A stretch of DNA of 64,000 nt, taken from positions 2,878,093 to 2,942,092 of the forward strand of contig CBDHCN010000002.1 in assembly GCA_965261185.1 (NCBI GenBank), given 5' to 3'. The notes below the pieces were generated by a model. The model searched no databases, was not told the DNA's origin, and worked only from the letters and a program-made list of their open reading frames with translations. Below are positions 15,979 to 64,000 of this stretch, piece after piece. Origin of the DNA: Candidatus Aldehydirespiratoraceae bacterium (GTDB lineage: Bacteria; Actinomycetota; Acidimicrobiia; Acidimicrobiales; Aldehydirespiratoraceae). Made by a program: the position numbers and the translations under genes. Each line of letters opens with the position of its first letter. Positions within the stretch are counted from its first letter, which is position 1.

Positions 15979-16995
15979 ATGAACCAAGACGAGCACTATA
16001 TGGGGTTGGCGATCAAGGCGGCCTGCAATGCTCGGCATCGGTCGTCGCCGAACCCGTGGGTCGGGGCTGTGCTGGTCGGTGCTGATGGCAGCGTCGTGTC
16101 GGGCTCCACGCAAGTCTATGGAGGAGCCCACGCCGAGATGGTGGCCCTGAACGGGGCGACCAATACTCAAGGTGCCGCGCTCTACACAACGCTTGAACCC
16201 TGCAATCACGTCGGACGCACTGGCGCTTGTACTGAAGCGCTGATTCGAGCGGGAGTCTCGCGGGTTGTCGCCGCGATCCAGGACCCGGATCCGTTGGTTG
16301 CCGGCAGTGGGATTGAGCGTCTTCGTCAAGCAGAGATCGATGTCACCGTGGGTGTGTGTGCCGAAGAAGTCGAGCAGCAACTGCGTCCCTACCTTCACCA
16401 TCGTCGCACTGGCCGACCCTGGGTGGTGCTCAAGCTCGCAGCAACGTTCGATGGTCGTGTAGCCGCACCTGACGCAACCTCACAGTGGATCACCGGAACG
16501 CAGGCACGGCTTGACGTTCACCGGTTGAGAGCAATTTCAGACGCCATTGTTGTGGGTGCGGGCACCGTACGTGCCGACGACCCGTCACTGACCGTGCGCC
16601 ACTGGCCCGGCCATGATCAAACAGTCGACCCCAAAGAGGTCAGCGATCCTCGCCGAGTCGTTCTCGGTTCGGTGCAGGCCACCGCCAAGGTGAACCCCTG
16701 CCTCGAATGGGACCGAGAGCTTGACGAACTACTTGAACATCTCGGCGACTCCGGAGTCGTGCAATTGCTGGTCGAAGGTGGTCCGACCGTGGCCCACTCC
16801 TTCCACAGCGCAAGACTGGTAGACCAATATGTTCTCTATCTGGCACCGGCGTTCATGGGCGGAGATGACGGTGCTCCGCTGTTCAGCGGTCCCGGCACGG
16901 TGACCATCAGCGAAATCTGGCGCGGAAAAATAGAGCAAGTCCGAGAACTGGGCGACGATGTACGCATCGATGTAGTGAAATTCACCGCTAGTTGA
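15979..16995 (+). CDS. ribD: bifunctional riboflavin biosynthesis deaminase/reductase
   Basis: The deaminase zinc motifs HAEMVAL and TLEPCNHVGRTGACT are present. A reductase half follows (KLAATFDGRVA). Confidence 0.93.
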   Translation: MNQDEHYMGLAIKAACNARHRSSPNPWVGAVLVGADGSVVSGSTQVYGGAHAEMVALNGATNTQGAALYTTLEPCNHVGRTGACTEALIRAGVSRVVAAIQDPDPLVAGSGIERLRQAEIDVTVGVCAEEVEQQLRPYLHHRRTGRPWVVLKLAATFDGRVAAPDATSQWITGTQARLDVHRLRAISDAIVVGAGTVRADDPSLTVRHWPGHDQTVDPKEVSDPRRVVLGSVQATAKVNPCLEWDRELDELLEHLGDSGVVQLLVEGGPTVAHSFHSARLVDQYVLYLAPAFMGGDDGAPLFSGPGTVTISEIWRGKIEQVRELGDDVRIDVVKFTAS

Positions 16996-53314: not shown

Positions 53315-53911
53315 TCAACCAGAGCTTGAACCTCTGGATTTTTCGACCTTCCGTTTCTCGCGGAGCCGACCGAGAGCCCCTGGGTCACCGAGGTCGGCAA
53401 CGCTGCGGAGATCTTCTTGGGCGAAAACCCCGGCGATAGTCTCCCAACCGGATGGCTGGTAATCGAAGCGTTTGGCCAGGATGGACATGAAAATCTGGGC
53501 CTTCACCGGACCGTAGCCGGGCAACGCCAAGAGTCGCTTGTAGAGCACTTCGGCATCATCCACATCTTCCCACAGCAATGCTGGGTCACCTTCGTATTCG
53601 TCAACCAGATGCTCGCACAGCTTGTGGATGCGGCGCCCCATCATGGCCGGGAAGCGGTGCACCGCGGGTTTCTGAGCGGCTACAGCGGCCAGTTCTTCTG
53701 GATCCATCGCGGCGATGTGGTCGGCATCAAGGGTGCCGTCGAGTCGTTGGGCCAGTCGCAGGGGTGCGGCGAAGGCCCATTCGATGGGGATCTGCTGGTC
53801 GAGCAACATTCCGATCCTGAGCGCCAGCGGGTTGGTGTTGAGCAGGTGGTCTGCCTCGGCGTCACCAGTGACGACGAGCGTACCGTTGGCGGGCCGCTGG
53901 GCCTCAGGCAC
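53315..53911 (-). CDS. HhH-GPD-type base-excision-repair-like protein
   Basis: LLNTNPLALRIGMLLDQQIPIEWAF and LLALPGYGPVKAQIFMSILAKRF are present. GTG 53911 overlaps the aceE stop by 8 nt. The upstream 68 codons of the listed ORF lie inside aceE. Confidence 0.7.
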   Translation of the reverse strand: MPEAQRPANGTLVVTGDAEADHLLNTNPLALRIGMLLDQQIPIEWAFAAPLRLAQRLDGTLDADHIAAMDPEELAAVAAQKPAVHRFPAMMGRRIHKLCEHLVDEYEGDPALLWEDVDDAEVLYKRLLALPGYGPVKAQIFMSILAKRFDYQPSGWETIAGVFAQEDLRSVADLGDPGALGRLREKRKVEKSRGSSSG

Positions 53912-56621
53912 CAGTGTCTGGATGGGCTGGGTCGGGGCGGTACGGGTCGATACCGGCCTTGGCGATGGCACGGCTGACTTCCTCACGGGTAGCGGTGCCT
54001 TCTTCGAGCATGGCTGACAATACCGCCACCACGATATTGCTGGCGTCGATCTCGAAGAATCGCCGCAACGCTTCCCTCGTGTCGGAACGACCGAAACCGT
54101 CGGTCCCGAGGACATGTAGCGGGCGAGGCGTCCACCGTGCGATCTGATCGGGAACCAGCGTCATCCAATCCGACACAGCCACTATCGGTCCCTCGCTGTC
54201 GCTGAGTCTGCGTGTCACGTTGGACAACTCTGGGGGCCGATCAGGAGACAATCGGTTGCGACGTTCCACGTCTAGTGCGTCGGCGCGAAGTCGCTTGTAG
54301 GAGGTGACGCTCCAGAGTTCGACGCCGATGTCGTAGTCGTCGACGAGGATCTGTTGGGCTTCGCGCGCGGCCAGGTTCAAGGTGCCCGAAAAGAGGATGG
54401 TCGCGCGGCGCTCAGTCTCGTCGGGGCCATCGTCGAACTTGTAGATTCCGTCGGTGATGTCGCGGTCCTGAACATGATCCGGACGCGGGGGTTGTTCGTA
54501 GTTCTCGTTGTAGATCGTGATGTAATAAAACACGTCTTCGCCATCGGCGGATCGGCCGTCGGGGTACATCCGATGCAGGCCCTGGCGCAAGATCGTGCCG
54601 AGTTCGTAGGCGAAGGCGGGGTCATACGCTTCGCAGGAGGGAACCGTTGATGCCAACAGCATGCTGTGACCGTCTTGATGTTGTAGTCCTTCGCCGAGCA
54701 GGGTGGTGCGGCCTGCGGTGGCGCCCATGAGAAAACCTCGCGTACGGGCGTCAGCTGCTGCCCACAGCGAGTCACCGACCCTCTGAAACCCGAACATTGA
54801 GTAAAAGGTGTAGAACGGGACCATAGGAACACCGCTGTTGGCGTAGGCGGTTCCAGCGGCGATCCATTCGGCGGTCGAACCACATTCGGTTATGCCCTCT
54901 TCGAGGATTTGCCCGTCTTCAGATTCGGCGTAGGAGAGCAGCAGGTCGTGGTCGACTGGTTCGTAGAGTTGGCCTTGCGGCGCGTATATGCGGAACTCTC
55001 GAAACAGCGAGTCCATACCGAAGGTGCGGGCCTCGTCGGGGACGATCGGCACGACACGTTCGCCGAATCGCTTGTCTCTCAGCAGGTCTCGCAACACTGC
55101 AGTGAAAGCCATTGTGGTCGATACCGAGCGCCCCGAGGAGCCTTTCTGGAGATCAAGGAAGGGTGCCTCGCTGGGCAACTTGAGTGGTCGGCGGTCTCGT
55201 ACGATGCGGCTGGGCAGGGGCCCGTCGAGTGCGCGGCGTCGCTCCATCAGATAGGCGCGCTCCTCTCCGTCTGGTGATGGCCGGTAATAAGGTGGGATGC
55301 CGTCGTCGAGTGAATCCTCGGAGATTTCCTCTTCCATCCGGAGCCTGGCCCTTAGTTCCAGAAGTTGTGCCTTGGTCATCTTCTTGATCTGGTGGGTGGC
55401 GTTGCGCCCTTCGAAACCCTCACCAAGGGTCCAGCCCTTAATGGTCTTGGCGAGGATCACGGTTGGTTGTCCAGTGGTCTGAGCTGCAGCTTTGAAAGCG
55501 GCGTAGACCTTTTGGTAGTCGTGGCCCCCGCGGGGGAGCGCTTTGAGGTCGTCGTCGCTCAGGTGTTCTACGAGTTTGCGCAGTCTCGGGTCTGGTCCGA
55601 AGAAATTCTCGCGGATGTAGGCGCCGTCTTCAACGGCGAAACGCTGGTATTCGCCGTCGACTGTTTCGGACATCTTGTTGAGGAGCACACCATCTACATC
55701 GCGATGCAGCAGTTCATCCCAGCGACTACCCCAGATCACCTTGATGACGTTCCAGCCGGCGCCACGGAATACGCCTTCAAGTTCTTGGATGATTTTTCCG
55801 TTGCCTCTAACGGGTCCGTCAAGGCGCTGCAGGTTGCAGTTGACGATCCATTTCAAATTGTCGAGGGCGGAGCGACCTGCCAGGGCGATCGCGCCGAGGG
55901 TTTCGGGTTCGTCGCATTCGCCGTCGCCGAGAAAGCTCCACACGTTGCTTTGCGAGGTGTCGTCGATTTTGCGTTGATGCATGTAGCGGTTGAAACGGGC
56001 GTGGTAGATCGAATTGATCGGGCCCAGACCCATCGAGACGGTGGGGTACTCCCAAAACTCCGGCATCAAGCGAGGGTGCGGGTAGCTCGAAAGGCCGTTC
56101 CCGCCGACTTCCATGCGGAAATGGTCGAGTTGTTGCTCGTTGAGGCGCCCCTCAAGGAAGGCCCGTGCGTAGACCCCTGGGGCAGCATGTCCCTGGAAGT
56201 ACACATGGTCACCGGGGAGTCCGTCTTCTTTGCCTCGAAAGAAATGGTTGAAGCCGACTTCGTAGAGGGCTGCGCTTGAAGCGAACGTTGACAGGTGGCC
56301 GCCGATGCCGTCAGCGATCTTGTTGGCGCGGATCACCATGGCCGCAGCGTTCCAACGGATGATCGCCCGAATGCGTCGCTCTATGTTTTCGTCGCCGGGA
56401 AAGAAAGGTTGCGACTCGGCGGGGATGGTGTTGATGTAGGGCGTGCTGGTAGTCGGGGGGACTCCGATTTGGAGTTCGTTGGAACGTTCAAGCAGTTTGG
56501 CGAGCAGGTACCGGGCCCGAGCTTGACCTTGACTGGCATGGACTGCATCAAGGGAATCGATCCACTCAGTGGTTTCGGCTGGATCGATGTCGGGTAGTTG
56601 GCGGGAGAAGTGATCAGCCAT
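53904..56621 (-). CDS. aceE: pyruvate dehydrogenase E1 component, homodimeric type
   Basis: 905 aa with IRWNAAAMVIRANK, GGHLSTFASSAALYEVGFNHFF and FLGDGECDEPETLGAI. Confidence 0.96.
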   Translation of the reverse strand: MADHFSRQLPDIDPAETTEWIDSLDAVHASQGQARARYLLAKLLERSNELQIGVPPTTSTPYINTIPAESQPFFPGDENIERRIRAIIRWNAAAMVIRANKIADGIGGHLSTFASSAALYEVGFNHFFRGKEDGLPGDHVYFQGHAAPGVYARAFLEGRLNEQQLDHFRMEVGGNGLSSYPHPRLMPEFWEYPTVSMGLGPINSIYHARFNRYMHQRKIDDTSQSNVWSFLGDGECDEPETLGAIALAGRSALDNLKWIVNCNLQRLDGPVRGNGKIIQELEGVFRGAGWNVIKVIWGSRWDELLHRDVDGVLLNKMSETVDGEYQRFAVEDGAYIRENFFGPDPRLRKLVEHLSDDDLKALPRGGHDYQKVYAAFKAAAQTTGQPTVILAKTIKGWTLGEGFEGRNATHQIKKMTKAQLLELRARLRMEEEISEDSLDDGIPPYYRPSPDGEERAYLMERRRALDGPLPSRIVRDRRPLKLPSEAPFLDLQKGSSGRSVSTTMAFTAVLRDLLRDKRFGERVVPIVPDEARTFGMDSLFREFRIYAPQGQLYEPVDHDLLLSYAESEDGQILEEGITECGSTAEWIAAGTAYANSGVPMVPFYTFYSMFGFQRVGDSLWAAADARTRGFLMGATAGRTTLLGEGLQHQDGHSMLLASTVPSCEAYDPAFAYELGTILRQGLHRMYPDGRSADGEDVFYYITIYNENYEQPPRPDHVQDRDITDGIYKFDDGPDETERRATILFSGTLNLAAREAQQILVDDYDIGVELWSVTSYKRLRADALDVERRNRLSPDRPPELSNVTRRLSDSEGPIVAVSDWMTLVPDQIARWTPRPLHVLGTDGFGRSDTREALRRFFEIDASNIVVAVLSAMLEEGTATREEVSRAIAKAGIDPYRPDPAHPDTGA

Positions 56622-56666
56622 ATGTGTCCCTATTCTCGCATCACTTTTTTGCTTTGGGTGAAAGCA

Positions 56667-57749
56667 ATGGGTGGAAGTTGTCCGCAGAGATCACAGAATG
56701 AGCGCATCAGTAGTGCAACTAGTACAACAACTGTTTACACGGACGGTGCCTGTCTAGGGAATCCTGGGCCTGGTGGCTGGGGTTGGGTTGTGCCCGATGG
56801 CCGCTGGGCCAACGGCGCTGACACTGCGACTACCAATCAGCGGATGGAACTCACCGCTGTACTCGAAGCGCTGCGGGCCATCGAGGGTCCCGTTGAGGTC
56901 GTCTCGGATTCAACGTACGTAGTCAATTGTTTTCGTGACCGCTGGTGGGCAGGTTGGCTCAAACGTGACTGGCGCAACTCCAACAAGCAGCCGGTCGCCA
57001 ATCGAGACATCTGGGAACCGCTGATTGAGCTTTATCGCTCAGCGCCACACGAAATCACCTTTACTTGGGTGAAAGGGCACGCTGGCGACGAATGGAACGA
57101 GGTAGCGGATCGCTTGGCGGCTGAAGCTTCGCGTACGCAAGTGGGTCGCACAGGTGTTGGTATGCCCGATGATCTCGCTGAGGCTGATGAGATTGGGCTG
57201 CTAGCACCACGTGACGGAACCGCAGACAACCGCCCCTTCGGCAGTTCGTGGCGACCAGCGGGCCGTTGTGTGGCGATACTTGGGTTGCAGCTCGACTCAG
57301 AGGGCCCCCACTCAGACAGCAATGTGGATAAGACGCGGCAGCGGCTCGCGGAGATCTTGGCGGCGAAGAAAGAACTCGACGACGACCTGGTCGTGCTGAC
57401 GGGGTTGCGCCGTGGCGCGGAGACTCTTGGCGCCGAAGCAGCAGCGGAGGCTGGAGTGCCTTACGTAGCAGTGCTGCCATATCCCAACCCTGCACGCAAG
57501 TGGCCGTCGGCCAACAGAAATCACTTTGCGCAGATGTTGGAAGGAGCGGCCAAAGTCGTGTGCTTGCAACGCAAGGTTCCCGACACCTCCAAACGGGCCG
57601 GCGAGGCGCTGAAGCGAAGAAACGCATGGCTGAGAAAAGTCGCCGACGAAGCGTTGATCGTGTGGGACGGTGCTGATCGCCGGGTCGGCAGAGTGGTGAG
57701 TGCTTTCGAACGTGAAATGCCCGACGACGTTTGGGTCGTTGACGCCTAG
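56667..57749 (+). CDS. RNase HI domain fused to a YpsA-like SLOG domain
   Basis: The N-terminal part has VYTDGACLGNPGPGGWGWV, TNQRMELTAVLEAL and WVKGHAGDEWNEVADRLA. The C-terminal part has VVLTGLRRGAETLGAEAAAEAGVPYVAVLPYPNPARKWPSANRNHF...RRNAWLRKVADEALIVWDG, which follows the YpsA/DUF1273 pattern. ATG 56667 is preferred; the listed 56598 overlaps aceE. Confidence 0.8.
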   Translation: MGGSCPQRSQNERISSATSTTTVYTDGACLGNPGPGGWGWVVPDGRWANGADTATTNQRMELTAVLEALRAIEGPVEVVSDSTYVVNCFRDRWWAGWLKRDWRNSNKQPVANRDIWEPLIELYRSAPHEITFTWVKGHAGDEWNEVADRLAAEASRTQVGRTGVGMPDDLAEADEIGLLAPRDGTADNRPFGSSWRPAGRCVAILGLQLDSEGPHSDSNVDKTRQRLAEILAAKKELDDDLVVLTGLRRGAETLGAEAAAEAGVPYVAVLPYPNPARKWPSANRNHFAQMLEGAAKVVCLQRKVPDTSKRAGEALKRRNAWLRKVADEALIVWDGADRRVGRVVSAFEREMPDDVWVVDA

Positions 57750-57757
57750 AACGACTT

Positions 57758-58660
57758 TCACTGCGGCTTGTCGAGAACGCTCCGTAGCGCACCGGCGAGA
57801 TCTGGTTGACGGAACTGGTAGCCACTGGCCAATAGCGCCGAAGGCTCGACCCTTTGGCTGGCGTACAGCAGTTGTTGAGTCAATTCCCGCCCGACTTTGG
57901 CCCACATCACAAGTTTGGGAGTGGGCAGAATCGTTGGTCGGTGCAGCACTTGTCCGAGGGTCTTGGTGAACTCTGCGTTGGTGACGGGATTGGGCGCGGT
58001 CATGTTGACGGGCCCGCCGATGTCGTTGTCGAGCAGCCAGATGATGGCCTGAACCATGTCTTGGATCGATATCCAGCTCAGCCACTGACGTCCGTTGCCG
58101 ATGCGGCCACCGATTCCGAGCCGAAAAAACGGGAGTTGCGCCTTCAGGGCTCCTCCGTTACCTGCCAGCACCACACCGGTGCGCAGATAGGTGAGCCGCG
58201 TGCAAGTTTGTGCTGGGCTGGCAGCGTGTTCCCAGGCGCGCACTACATCGGCAAGAAAGCCATCGCCACTGGAACTGATCTCGTTGAGTTCTTCGTCGCC
58301 GCGGTCTCCGTAGAAACCGATCGCCGAACCCGACAGGAACACCGATGGAGGGTTCTGGGCCTCGGCGATTGCGTTTGCCAACAGCGTGGTGGTCGTGATT
58401 CGGCTGTCGAGAATCCGGGTTTTTTGGGTGTCGCTCCAGCGTCGCTCGGCTATTGATGCTCCGGCTAGGTGAACTACCGCGTCGATATCTTCGAGAGCAT
58501 CTTTTGAGAAATCGCCCTTCGCCGGGTTCCAGAAGATGCTTTCGGTGTCGTCTCGGTTCTGTGACCGCAGCAGACGAATCGGCGTGTGGGTCGTGGCTTT
58601 GAGTGCGGAAACCAACGATGTTCCGATTAAGCCGGTGGAGCCGCTGATCAGTACCCGCAT
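57758..58660 (-). CDS. TIGR01777/YfcH-like NAD-dependent epimerase-family protein
   Basis: The protein opens MRVLISGSTGLIGTSLVSAL at ATG 58660. A DUF1731-like C-terminus is present (RVEPSALLASGYQFRQPDL). Confidence 0.8.
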   Translation of the reverse strand: MRVLISGSTGLIGTSLVSALKATTHTPIRLLRSQNRDDTESIFWNPAKGDFSKDALEDIDAVVHLAGASIAERRWSDTQKTRILDSRITTTTLLANAIAEAQNPPSVFLSGSAIGFYGDRGDEELNEISSSGDGFLADVVRAWEHAASPAQTCTRLTYLRTGVVLAGNGGALKAQLPFFRLGIGGRIGNGRQWLSWISIQDMVQAIIWLLDNDIGGPVNMTAPNPVTNAEFTKTLGQVLHRPTILPTPKLVMWAKVGRELTQQLLYASQRVEPSALLASGYQFRQPDLAGALRSVLDKPQ

Positions 58661-58764
58661 AGTCGTCCTTCGATCTCGCTTCTCGCGCTTGAGTGAGTCA
58701 CGCCCTATGCTGCGAATCATAGAGGGCTGGAATCATCGAGCGCACGCGAACTAAAGGACCGAAG

Positions 58765-59026: not shown

Positions 59027-59608
59027 CTAGGTGGCCAACAACTGTTCAATTCGTTCGGCGAGTTCTGCGACAGGGAGTCTGGTTACCTCGGTCGTGCCAT
59101 CGTCGTTGATGAAAGCGTAGATCGGCTGGCTGAAGACGCCGTAGCGTTCCCATACCGAATTGTCGGTGTCGGACACGTTTATGAGGTCAAAGACTCCGTA
59201 GCCCCCGACGAAGCGCTCAAGATCGGCTTCTGAGGTGCTGCTGCCACCGACGCCGATGATGTCAATCTGACCGGCGAATTGTTCCTGCACCGATGCGACC
59301 GCACCGGCTTCGCGTTGACAAGCCGGTCACCATGGCGCCCAAAACCACAACACGAGATCCTGTCCCTCGTAATCACCGGCATCGAATTGGCCTCCACCGA
59401 CGCGTTCCTCGGTCCAGTCGTGGGGCCATGCAACCGCAACAGAATCGCCCGCTTCGGTTGATGGTGACGGTCCTTCGGTGGTGGTCGTGGTCGTCGGATC
59501 CGGCTGTGCTGGGGTGGCTTCGTCGTCGGTTCCGTCGCCGCATGCACTTACGAAGAGCGCAGCGCCCAACAACGCGGCCGTGAACGGAGACAGCACATTT
59601 CGTTTCAC
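59027..59608 (-). CDS. candidate selenoprotein: TlpA/thioredoxin-like lipoprotein with U-x-x-C active site (in-frame TGA at 59327-59329)
   Basis: ORFs 59327..59608 and 59027..59290 share one frame. Read-through gives ...GQDLVLWFWAPW-[TGA]-PACQREAGAV..., the WCxxC position of redoxins. The N-terminal lipobox is ALFVSAC. A 7-bp hairpin starts immediately after the TGA. Confidence 0.75.
59304..59326 (-). promoter_or_regulatory. candidate SECIS-like hairpin
   Basis: In the mRNA, CCGGCUU-[GUCAACGCG]-AAGCCGG starts at the first nucleotide after the UGA. Confidence 0.4.
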
Positions 59609-62827: not shown

Positions 62828-64000
62828 GTGCTGAACGGTTCGGTTTTGGCCGAGCGGACTCTGCGGGTCCGCTGGTTGGGACGGGTTGCTTATTCAGATG
62901 CGCTCGCGTTGCAACGGTCGTTGTTCGTCAATCGCCAACACGACTATCTGCTGTTGTTGGAGCATCGCAATGTAGTGACCATGAGTCGCCGCACGCCGGC
63001 TGAGCATCTGCTTGCCGACGTTGAGGCGCTCGGTGCGGAGTTGTTTGTAGCGGATCGGGGAGGCGACGTTACCTACCACGGCCCCGGTCAACTTGTTGCT
63101 TATCCCATTGTTGATGTGCCGGGGCGCCGCGGCGGCGGTATGGCCGACACCGCCGCGTATGTGTCATCGCTTGAACAGTGTTTGATTGAAACCCTCGGAG
63201 ATGTTGGTGTGCAGTCGGGGCGTATCAAAGGCTGTACCGGCGTCTGGGTGGATCCCACCGGAGAACGGCCCCAGAAGATAGCGGCAATCGGGGTGCGGAT
63301 AGCGCGGGGACGCTCCATGCATGGGGTGGCGCTCAACGTTGACCCGGATTTGAGCTGGTATGAGCGAATCGTTCCGTGTGGCATTCCCGACAAGGGTGTC
63401 ACCTCGCTGGCCGCGCTCGGTGTTGACGTTTCGATGCCTGAGATGGTCGAGGTGTTCACGCAACGGGCGGTGGCTGTGTTCGCTCAACACGGATCAGTTG
63501 ACCGCGCCGGCGTTGGGTTCAAGACCAAACCCGCTGACTTTGCGCCGTTCACTCGTGGAGAAGGCCCAGGCACACCGGTTGGGCGTTCTGGAGTCGGTTA
63601 CCAATCTGAGGATCCGACCCCGGCAATCACTGGACAAGCGTCCTCACCGCAGGAATTTGCGAGACAGGCTGATGGCACGTCGGTGCGGTTGCTTGGACGC
63701 CTTGCTCAAGCGGGGGCCACCAGTCACGACCCCGTGCGCTTGCGCGCGCGCAAGCCTGAGTGGATGCGGGTGAAGTTCGATCCTGGACCGCAGTATCGCC
63801 GGATCAGGTCCACGATGCGTGAACTCGGACTCGTGACCGTGTGCGAAGAAGCGGGTTGCCCCAATATTTCCGAGTGCTGGAACGACGGCACGGCGACCTT
63901 CATGATCCTGGGGGACCGTTGCACACGAGCTTGTGGGTTCTGCTTGATCGACACCCGGCATCCCGAGGCGCCGGATCCTCATGAGGCGACCCGTGTGGCT
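62828..64000 (+). CDS. lipB-lipA: lipoyl(octanoyl) transferase LipB and lipoyl synthase LipA in one continuous reading frame (3' end outside window)
   Basis: By manual translation, no stop occurs from 62828 to the window end. The LipB part has LLLLEHRNVVTMSRRT, DRGGDVTYHGPGQLVAYPI, KIAAIGVRIARGRSMHGVALNV and PCGIPDKGVTSL. After a ~70-aa linker the LipA part follows (RKPEWMRVKF...LVTVCEEAGCPNISECW...ATFMILGDRCTRACGFC). The ORF is absent from the track because it has no stop in the window. Confidence 0.8.
   Translation, partial: MLNGSVLAERTLRVRWLGRVAYSDALALQRSLFVNRQHDYLLLLEHRNVVTMSRRTPAEHLLADVEALGAELFVADRGGDVTYHGPGQLVAYPIVDVPGRRGGGMADTAAYVSSLEQCLIETLGDVGVQSGRIKGCTGVWVDPTGERPQKIAAIGVRIARGRSMHGVALNVDPDLSWYERIVPCGIPDKGVTSLAALGVDVSMPEMVEVFTQRAVAVFAQHGSVDRAGVGFKTKPADFAPFTRGEGPGTPVGRSGVGYQSEDPTPAITGQASSPQEFARQADGTSVRLLGRLAQAGATSHDPVRLRARKPEWMRVKFDPGPQYRRIRSTMRELGLVTVCEEAGCPNISECWNDGTATFMILGDRCTRACGFCLIDTRHPEAPDPHEATRVA

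Follow-up and report, generated by a model that had tools for sequence, protein, structure and literature searches.

A 64,000-nucleotide stretch of DNA from a Candidatus Aldehydirespiratoraceae bacterium (contig CBDHCN010000002.1, positions 2,878,093 to 2,942,092; hereafter, the window) carries a gene encoding a ribonuclease HI (RNase HI) fused at its C-terminus to a SLOG domain of the YpsA clade. The fusion is real, old, vertically inherited, and common in Acidimicrobiia, and it has been lost in some of them. As a whole, it is best explained, with a probability of about 0.5, as an rnhA gene with an acquired accessory nucleotide-binding SLOG domain that would tune or localise the RNase HI. The gene and its parts are as follows (aa, amino acid residues; pLDDT, predicted local distance difference test score of the structural model).

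56667–57749, plus strand: coding sequence of the RNase HI–SLOG fusion, 360 aa with the stop codon at 57747–57749 (open reading frame listing and translation)
56667–56723, plus strand: Ser/Thr-rich N-terminal leader MGGSCPQRSQNERISSATS, 19 aa, clade-specific, modelled with low confidence (pLDDT 56–70)
56724–57137, plus strand: RNase HI domain, aa 20–157, with D26, E61, D81, H138, and D148, and with WWAGWLKRDWRNSNKQPVANRDIW where E. coli has its basic protrusion (Pfam, 1ril, Foldseek)
57138–57176, plus strand: conserved post-RNase-H segment, aa 158–170, consensus TQ.GR.G...P..LGP.D, modelled as a short extra strand
57177–57263, plus strand: variable, acidic, disordered linker, aa 171–199 (pLDDT 43–55)
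57264–57746, plus strand: YpsA-clade SLOG (Rossmannoid) domain, aa 200–360 (family profile, PF06908, AlphaFold 2 model, Foldseek)
57285–57332, plus strand: degenerate strand 1–helix 1 loop, aa 207–222, LQLDSEGPHSDSNVDK, replacing RPPELGGY..NP (YpsA: YKPFELGIF) in the 76-sequence alignment
57402–57443, plus strand: G-rich GxE pocket motif, aa 246–259, GLRRGAETLGAEAA (alignment to 2nx2; conservation)
57477–57506, plus strand: P271-Y272 ... W279-P280 segment, equivalent to YpsA P79-F80 and W87 by the alignment to 2nx2

The N-terminal domain was recognised as RNase HI by its catalytic pattern in an earlier reading of the DNA made without database searches (hereafter, the sequence-only reading), and the profile and structure searches bear this out. 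PF00075 matches aa 20–155 over profile positions 3–140 of 141 (E = 1.6e-38; 132.5 bits vs. a cutoff of 25.8), the NCBIfam RNase HI model PRK00203 scores 145 bits (E = 1e-42), and, among relatives of solved structure, T. thermophilus RNase H matches best (1ril; E = 2.7e-35). All five active-site residues are present: D26, E61, D81, H138, and D148 correspond to E. coli D10, E48, D70, H124, and D134, and are at least 97% conserved in an alignment of 76 species-level sequences, to which the conservation values given below also refer. The full-length AlphaFold model is superimposed on E. coli RNase HI by Foldseek with a root-mean-square deviation of ~1.8–2.2 Å (TMt 0.81–0.88). The segment WWAGWLKRDWRNSNKQPVANRDIW and the matching segment of the T. 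thermophilus enzyme align without gaps; we take this segment to be the basic protrusion of E. coli RNase HI, that is, the substrate handle. The ratio of nonsynonymous to synonymous substitution rates (dN/dS) in the domain is 0.08 within the window's clade. By homology, the N-terminal domain would cleave RNA in RNA:DNA hybrids.

For the C-terminal domain, Pfam matches of the single sequence are all to SLOG families and all below threshold (YAcAr, 7e-4; YpsA, 0.01; DprA, 0.026). On the window's sequence alone, PF06908 scores 16.3–18.8 bits vs. a gathering cutoff of 27.7, and PF02481 (DprA/Smf) is likewise sub-threshold at 14–17 bits vs. 29.6. A search with the C-terminal 176 aa retrieves 106 homologues, many of them with precomputed PF00075 and PF06908 assignments, labelled by JGI as “ribonuclease HI/uncharacterized phage-like protein YoqJ” and, in some cases, by NCBI as “SLOG family protein.” The profile of 30 such C-terminal domains matches B. 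subtilis YpsA (2nx2) with E = 1e-7 (positions 6–140 vs. residues 4–139), this being the sole significant match in that search; individually, 26 of the 30 members match PF06908, the best with E = 1.5e-9.

Since the matches listed by Foldseek for the full-length model are RNase H structures only, a separate model of the C-terminal region was needed. Predicted by AlphaFold 2 with a pLDDT of 94.8 and a predicted template modelling (pTM) score of 0.90, this model has 2nx2 as its first-ranked match in the PDB (E = 1.4e-9; template modelling (TM) scores 0.80/0.76), followed by ShosA (E = 4.8e-7), DprA (E ~1e-5, TM ~0.6), the molybdenum cofactor (Moco) carrier protein, and LOG. The family profile, the predicted structure, and the conservation agree on the YpsA-like SLOG layout proposed in the sequence-only reading, and YpsA heads both the profile and the Foldseek results, ahead of any unrelated fold. 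The sub-threshold PF06908 score marks the window's clade as divergent within the YpsA family. Among non-fused relatives, those closest to it are ordinary YpsA proteins and one YpsA–NADAR fusion.

The SLOG domain keeps residues at the positions of YpsA G53, E55, P79/F80, and W87, whose mutation abolishes YpsA function (alignment to 2nx2; PMC6459960; PMC7376506). Here, G250 and E252 correspond to YpsA G53 and E55, part of the GxD/E substrate-pocket motif defined in that protein, and the G53A and E55Q mutants lose function (PMC6459960); P79L and W87A, in the segment equivalent to P271–P280, are also loss-of-function mutations (PMC7376506, PMC6459960). At least 97% conservation is seen for G246, G250, A251, and E252; for P273, W279, and P280; and for R317, R318, and W321, while the sequences shown have Tyr or Phe at position 272. 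In the alignment of 30 members (A2), E252 and E257, its E57 and E62, do not vary. For the domain, the median net charge is -3 and the isoelectric point (pI) 5.75, and, with the degenerate loop set aside, its dN/dS within the window's clade is 0.12.

The segment that joins the two domains (aa 158–199) measures ~42 aa in the window, somewhat less than the ~50 aa estimated by the sequence-only reading, and only its first ~13 residues are conserved, the remainder being disordered. In the model, aa 161–170 have a mean pLDDT of 92 and form a strand at 161–164; G163 is nearly invariant. Across the family the segment varies from 16 to 69 aa (median 42), with a net charge of -2; its dN/dS is 0.27.

Both domains are encoded by one gene, and all motifs quoted from it by the sequence-only reading (YTDGAC, NQRMELTAV, SDSTYV, GHAGDEWNEVADRLA, TGLRRGAETLGAEAA, VAVLPYPNPARKWPSANRNHF, and RRNAWLRKVADEALIVWDG) are found in the translation. 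Relatives were collected from one genome per GTDB species, which yielded at least 270, the best 80 of them described here, and the loci were compared in a set of 82 (L001–L082). In 76 of the 82, the frame encoding the SLOG domain runs stop-free upstream into an RNase H containing YTDGAC. These are independent assemblies, complete chromosomes included, and the recurrence of the in-frame architecture shows that the fusion is not an assembly artefact. The six exceptions comprise four loci at contig ends, one with a run of N, and one (L079) lacking the N-terminal motif. An apparent split into adjacent rnhA and ypsA genes, seen in one further locus (L085), was rejected as real, since the assembly is ridden with frameshifts, which break aceE as well. 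No second copy of either RNase H or SLOG is present within the window.

The best 80 relatives come essentially all from Acidimicrobiia. The closest, 94–98% identical, belong to Ca. Aldehydirespiratoraceae; further matches are found in Microthrix-like metagenome-assembled genomes (MAGs), and in the cultured Actinospongicola halichondriae and Acidiferrimicrobium. Two MAGs with the fusion are labelled as “Gammaproteobacteria” and “Actinomyces sp.” (L019, CAXMSE010000093.1, and L026, RFFY01000797.1, respectively). The neighbours in L019 are those of an Acidimicrobiia contig, with an aceE gene 82% identical to that of the window and with hydrolase, HhH-GPD, and epimerase genes. A binning or labelling error is probable.

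The genomic context of the fusion is that of housekeeping genes.

53904–56621, minus strand: aceE (pyruvate dehydrogenase E1), divergent neighbour (open reading frame; Pfam on orthologues; 58 of the 82 loci)
56622–56666, no strand: divergent intergenic region of 45 bp between the aceE ATG (56621, minus strand) and the rnhA–SLOG ATG (56667), from the sequence
57758–58720, minus strand: NAD-dependent epimerase/DUF1731 protein, convergent neighbour (open reading frame; Pfam on orthologues; 32 of the 82 loci)

Where aceE is present, it is mostly divergent and lies 45–190 bp from the YTDGAC motif; lpdA and sucB also recur as neighbours. A scan of the aceE/rnhA intergenic region for promoters gives no sigma-70 consensus. 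A phage origin or a defence role was considered and rejected: no relatives of the fusion were found on viral contigs, the PADLOC defence models give no match at E <= 1, and the single PHROG match is insignificant. The pairwise distances of the RNase H and SLOG domains are correlated (Spearman 0.58).

The longest open reading frame of the gene spans 56598–57749 on the plus strand and begins with TTG (383 aa), while position 56667, 45 bp from the divergent aceE start, is an ATG. The residue encoded there is Met in most close relatives and Leu in one (L004), with the downstream GGSC[PS]QRSQNERISSAT kept; such Met/Leu alternation is typical of a start codon and fits 56667 as the real start. The 19-aa leader that follows is kept only in the closest relatives (L003–L012). 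When public gene models of the family (P0001–P0106) are set against the DNA of the 82 loci, most of them start at an internal Met (MEL..., MNDLVD..., MKGH...), so that the first catalytic Asp is missing and, in some, more than that. The DNA upstream of these truncated models holds an uninterrupted frame with YTDGAC, which rules them out as genuine starts; the true family starts, some of them TTG, lie at very short distances from the divergent aceE start. The fusion family is systematically mis-annotated at its N-terminus, and the loss of the first catalytic Asp from the miscalled starts hides the true architecture in annotation.

A search with the RNase H domain only retrieves mainly stand-alone RNase HI of 143–175 aa, 67–80% identical, many of which end in ...DQLA.GAA.DQRSRRGP and the stop codon, i.e., just past the equivalent of the conserved post-RNase-H motif. 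Two stand-alone rnhA genes, on the plus strand, occupy the identical locus, between aceE on the minus strand and the epimerase gene on the minus strand, with no space left for SLOG; these orthologues rule out that the fusion is universal in Acidimicrobiia. In one SLOG-less relative (L083, 6937–7544), a gene for a PemK-family toxin and a small gene upstream of it, resembling a toxin–antitoxin pair, lie between the stand-alone rnhA and the epimerase gene. The survey of related RNase H architectures proposed by the sequence-only reading yields both forms, the fusion in 76 of the 82 loci and stand-alone rnhA in sister Acidimicrobiia. The retention, at the same locus, of an rnhA without SLOG in these sister lineages shows that the domain is accessory and dispensable for the core RNase HI function.

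When a neighbour-joining tree is rooted on E. coli, fused forms make up the deepest ingroup branches, and stand-alone forms are nested among them, with one pure stand-alone clade of 33; the window's nuclease is equally close to stand-alone forms and to distant fused ones. One old fusion followed by several losses is probably the simplest reading, the direction of loss being that given by an unbootstrapped tree of a 140-aa domain.

The sequence-only reading had compared the protein with mycobacterial Rv2228c and inferred that the partner domain of the RNase H had been swapped, which does not hold. The model of the Rv2228c-type bifunctional RNase H/acid phosphatase, PRK07238, scores 14.4 bits vs. 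a cutoff of 326 (E = 0.018), as compared to 145 bits for PRK00203; a Pfam search of the fusion protein reveals no histidine-phosphatase (CobC) domain; and stand-alone rnhA genes with 67–80% identity occupy the same aceE-flanked locus. Mycobacteria have an E. coli-like RnhA and, as a distinct enzyme, RnhC, in which RNase H is combined with acid phosphatase (PMC5224475). By its profile scores, the nuclease of the fusion is of the E. coli/RnhA type, not of the RnhC/Rv2228c type, and, given also the stand-alone RnhA at the locus, SLOG is best regarded as added to rnhA, independently of the RnhC–CobC fusion, not swapped.

Under the explanation that we favour, an ancestral Acidimicrobiia rnhA would have gained a C-terminal YpsA-family SLOG domain via a flexible linker. 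The domain would serve as a nucleotide-binding accessory module, its pocket being formed by the GxE motif, the Pro–aromatic pair, Trp279, and Arg317/Arg318 with Trp321; from what is known of the family, this pocket is expected to bind a nucleotide moiety. More speculatively, the moiety may belong to an NAD+- or ADP-ribose-like nucleotide, or to a nucleotide at a nucleic-acid end, and its binding may tune the tethered RNase HI or concentrate it on the nucleoid, and not serve an unrelated metabolic reaction. As for the mechanism, a small-molecule sensor or localiser is tentatively preferred, at somewhat less than even odds. This preference follows from the neutral-to-acidic character of the domain, the invariance of its pocket glutamates, which we count toward small-molecule over DNA-backbone binding, the YpsA and YpsA–NADAR relatives, and the context of the YpsA clade, which is linked to NAD/ADP-ribose, while phage SLOG–nuclease fusions are predicted to be ligand-regulated (PMC6459960, PMC9503650). 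The suggestion of the sequence-only reading, that hybrid removal may be ligand-controlled or coupled to nucleotide processing, is plausible.

Several observations weigh against this explanation. The structural runners-up after YpsA, ShosA and DprA, are binders of single-stranded DNA (ssDNA), and YpsA foci are nucleoid-associated (PMC7376506), which together allow for nucleic-acid binding. In mycobacterial RnhC, an RNase HI carries an enzyme domain that functions independently (PMC5224475, PMC7466739). The placement of the two domains relative to each other is not predicted (full-length pTM 0.57), and a disordered, length-variable linker is as compatible with two autonomous modules as with coupling. 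To our knowledge, no ligand, binding, or regulation has been demonstrated for any member of the fusion family, nor, biochemically, for YpsA. Finally, the conserved loop after strand 1 is missing from the window's clade, which makes canonical ligand binding by the window's own protein less likely.

The post-strand-1 motif RPPELGGY..NP is kept in 64 other sequences of the alignment and lost in the window and its 11 closest relatives. Where the loop is expected, the window reads LQLDSEGPH, and the insert of the clade is variable, acidic, and Ser-rich, with dN/dS = 0.57, vs. 0.12 for the rest of the SLOG domain. The same region, in the window (57285–57332) and in L003, L005, L006, and L012, contains short tandem PHSDS/GS-rich indels that differ between genomes 94–98% identical elsewhere, forming a local hypervariable low-complexity patch in a constrained domain. 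Other pocket-proximal changes of the clade are GLGLGAEQ to GLRRGAET and RRD to RRN. In Rossmannoid domains of the SLOG class, the post-strand-1 loop contacts the substrate nucleotide (PMC9503650); hence, with this loop degenerate, ligand recognition in the window's clade is probably altered or weakened. The domain itself is not decaying, its remainder being under purifying selection.

The best-surviving rival, which we consider unlikely, is nucleic-acid targeting: SLOG would bind an RNA/DNA end or, like DprA and ShosA, ssDNA, and dock the nuclease at primer junctions or on the strand displaced in R-loops, much as the hybrid-binding domain does in RNase H1 of the eukaryotic type. An accessory domain for hybrid binding is a design known from RNase H1 enzymes. 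ShosA and DprA are the best structural matches after YpsA, and weak PF02481 matches recur; YpsA–GFP foci are associated with the nucleoid, and P79/F80 of YpsA, which have been proposed as the lining of a DNA-binding groove (PMC7376506), have a counterpart in the Pro–Tyr/Phe pair kept here. However, ShosA binds DNA through an extensive positive surface (PMC11961720), whereas the SLOG domain of the fusion is neutral to acidic and its pocket glutamates are invariant; the extra domains of DprA are absent, and SLOG is dispensable in sister lineages.

Doubtful as well, and ranked second, is an arrangement of two autonomous activities as in RnhC, with SLOG an independent nucleotide-processing enzyme (e.g., an N-glycosidase or a hydrolase of ADP-ribose derivatives, of the LOG/YpsA kind) fused for co-expression only. 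The long, disordered linker of variable length, with no inter-domain packing predicted, would suit such an enzyme, as would the invariant Glu and Arg residues of SLOG; LOG catalysis depends on Glu and Arg residues of this kind. A precedent is given by RnhC, whose domains are autonomous and whose phosphatase is dispensable for the essential function (PMC5224475), and here, too, SLOG has been lost in some lineages with rnhA kept. On the other hand, the LOG catalytic signature PGGxGTxxE is absent from the translation, and LOG structures match weakly (E ~1e-3, TM 0.36–0.54); the fusion persists through deep divergence with correlated domain distances; and we know of no enzymatic activity in the YpsA-proper clade.

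That the SLOG domain of the window's lineage is a non-functional remnant heading to loss is very improbable: the replaced, fast-evolving loop, the two pocket-proximal changes, and the related lineages without the whole domain would fit, but the rest of SLOG has a dN/dS near that of the nuclease and a confidently predicted fold, E252, W279, R317/R318, and W321 are retained, and the 12 clade members show no frameshifts or stops.

A bolder version of the favoured explanation, in our view a long shot, would make the fusion a “Rosetta stone” for YpsA-type SLOG: sensing of NAD+/ADP-ribose under redox or oxidative stress would gate or relocate RNase HI and thereby couple removal of R-loops and hybrids to the metabolic state, and, by extension, Firmicute YpsA might act at RNA:DNA hybrids of the nucleoid. 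The supporting links are circumstantial. YpsA and mycobacterial RnhA/RnhB are each independently tied to hydrogen-peroxide tolerance (PMC6459960, PMC5224475), which may be a coincidence; YpsA foci are nucleoid-associated; and in most genomes the fused gene and aceE, which encodes an NADH-producing enzyme, have a short divergent control region in common.

R-loops are under the control of RNase HI, and some actinobacteria cannot do without the enzyme. If true, the favoured explanation would provide the first metabolite- or ligand-linked control of a bacterial RNase HI. For the ligand and the molecular function of YpsA, the subject of several genetic studies, the conserved fusion to a hybrid-specific nuclease offers a concrete, testable hypothesis. 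A natural comparison set is at hand, consisting of fusions with an intact loop, such as that of A. halichondriae Hal317 (L038), fusions with a degenerate loop such as that of the window, and SLOG-less orthologues at the same locus.

Two observations concern other genes of the window. At 59027–59608 on the minus strand, a thioredoxin-fold TlpA/ResA-like gene, with a hydrophobic N-terminal sequence resembling a signal or lipoprotein sequence, contains one in-frame TGA, placed exactly at the first Cys of WCxxC (FWAPW-TGA-P[AT]C), and is divided by gene callers into two small open reading frames. The TGA is kept in the window and in 17 loci, distant ones included (L001–L009, L011–L013, L017, L019, L024, L046, and L056), and a conserved hairpin, GCCGGUGC-GGUC-GCAUCGGU, starts ~22 nt 3' of it. 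By sequence, the gene looks like a candidate for a selenocysteine (UxxC) protein with a bacterial selenocysteine insertion sequence (SECIS) element; Rfam gives no match on the window or on the TGA region. The second is a LipB–LipA fusion in a single open reading frame at 62921–64000 on the plus strand, continuing past the window end, and also at 16102–17781 of L001 and 16029–17873 of L002. It combines LplA-B_cat (LipB-like octanoyl/lipoyl transferase) with LIAS_N and Radical_SAM (LipA lipoyl synthase), measures 559–614 aa in relatives, and lies directly downstream of lpdA–sucB.

Both domains of the RNase HI–SLOG protein are known, and automated pipelines already label the architecture. The sequence-only reading knew of no characterised example, and in the searchable literature we found none either, nor a paper that describes or tests an RNase H–YpsA fusion; the SLOG classification (Burroughs et al., 2015) may list the architecture. 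Compared with E. coli and T. thermophilus RnhA and with M. smegmatis RnhA, the protein has the same fold and the same DEDD and His residues, with 39–42% identity to solved structures, and adds a C-terminal extension of ~200 aa (linker and SLOG) and, in its own clade only, the 19-aa leader. Compared with B. subtilis YpsA (2NX2; PF06908/DUF1273), the YpsA clade's founding member, it keeps the GxE motif, the Pro–aromatic pair, and the equivalent of Trp87; it differs in its ~15% overall identity, in being fused to a nuclease, and in its neighbours, aceE and the epimerase gene, with no gpsB. The Firmicute division-inhibition residues G42, E44, and W45 are not conserved, as they do not align to conserved positions of the family, and the window's clade additionally lacks the KPxELG-type loop.

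The ssDNA-binding SLOG proteins DprA and ShosA share the superfamily fold and form the second tier of structural matches; unlike them, the window's protein has no SAM and C-terminal domains, has an acidic net charge, and matches PF02481 below threshold. Like M. tuberculosis Rv2228c and M. smegmatis RnhC, it is an actinobacterial type-1 RNase H with a nucleotide-related second domain at the C-terminus, but the RNase H lineage is another one, and the partner fold is a histidine phosphatase there and SLOG here. Finally, it resembles Thoeris ThsA (SIR2–SLOG) and the phage fusions of SLOG to HNH, exonuclease, and helicase in that SLOG is tethered to an effector. In ThsA and the predicted phage cases, SLOG is the sensor of an ADP-ribose-derived ligand, and the effector is under its control (PMC7272460, PMC9503650); in contrast to these systems, the fusion described here has housekeeping synteny, matches no defence model, has no viral relatives, and is vertically inherited, and its effector is RNase HI.

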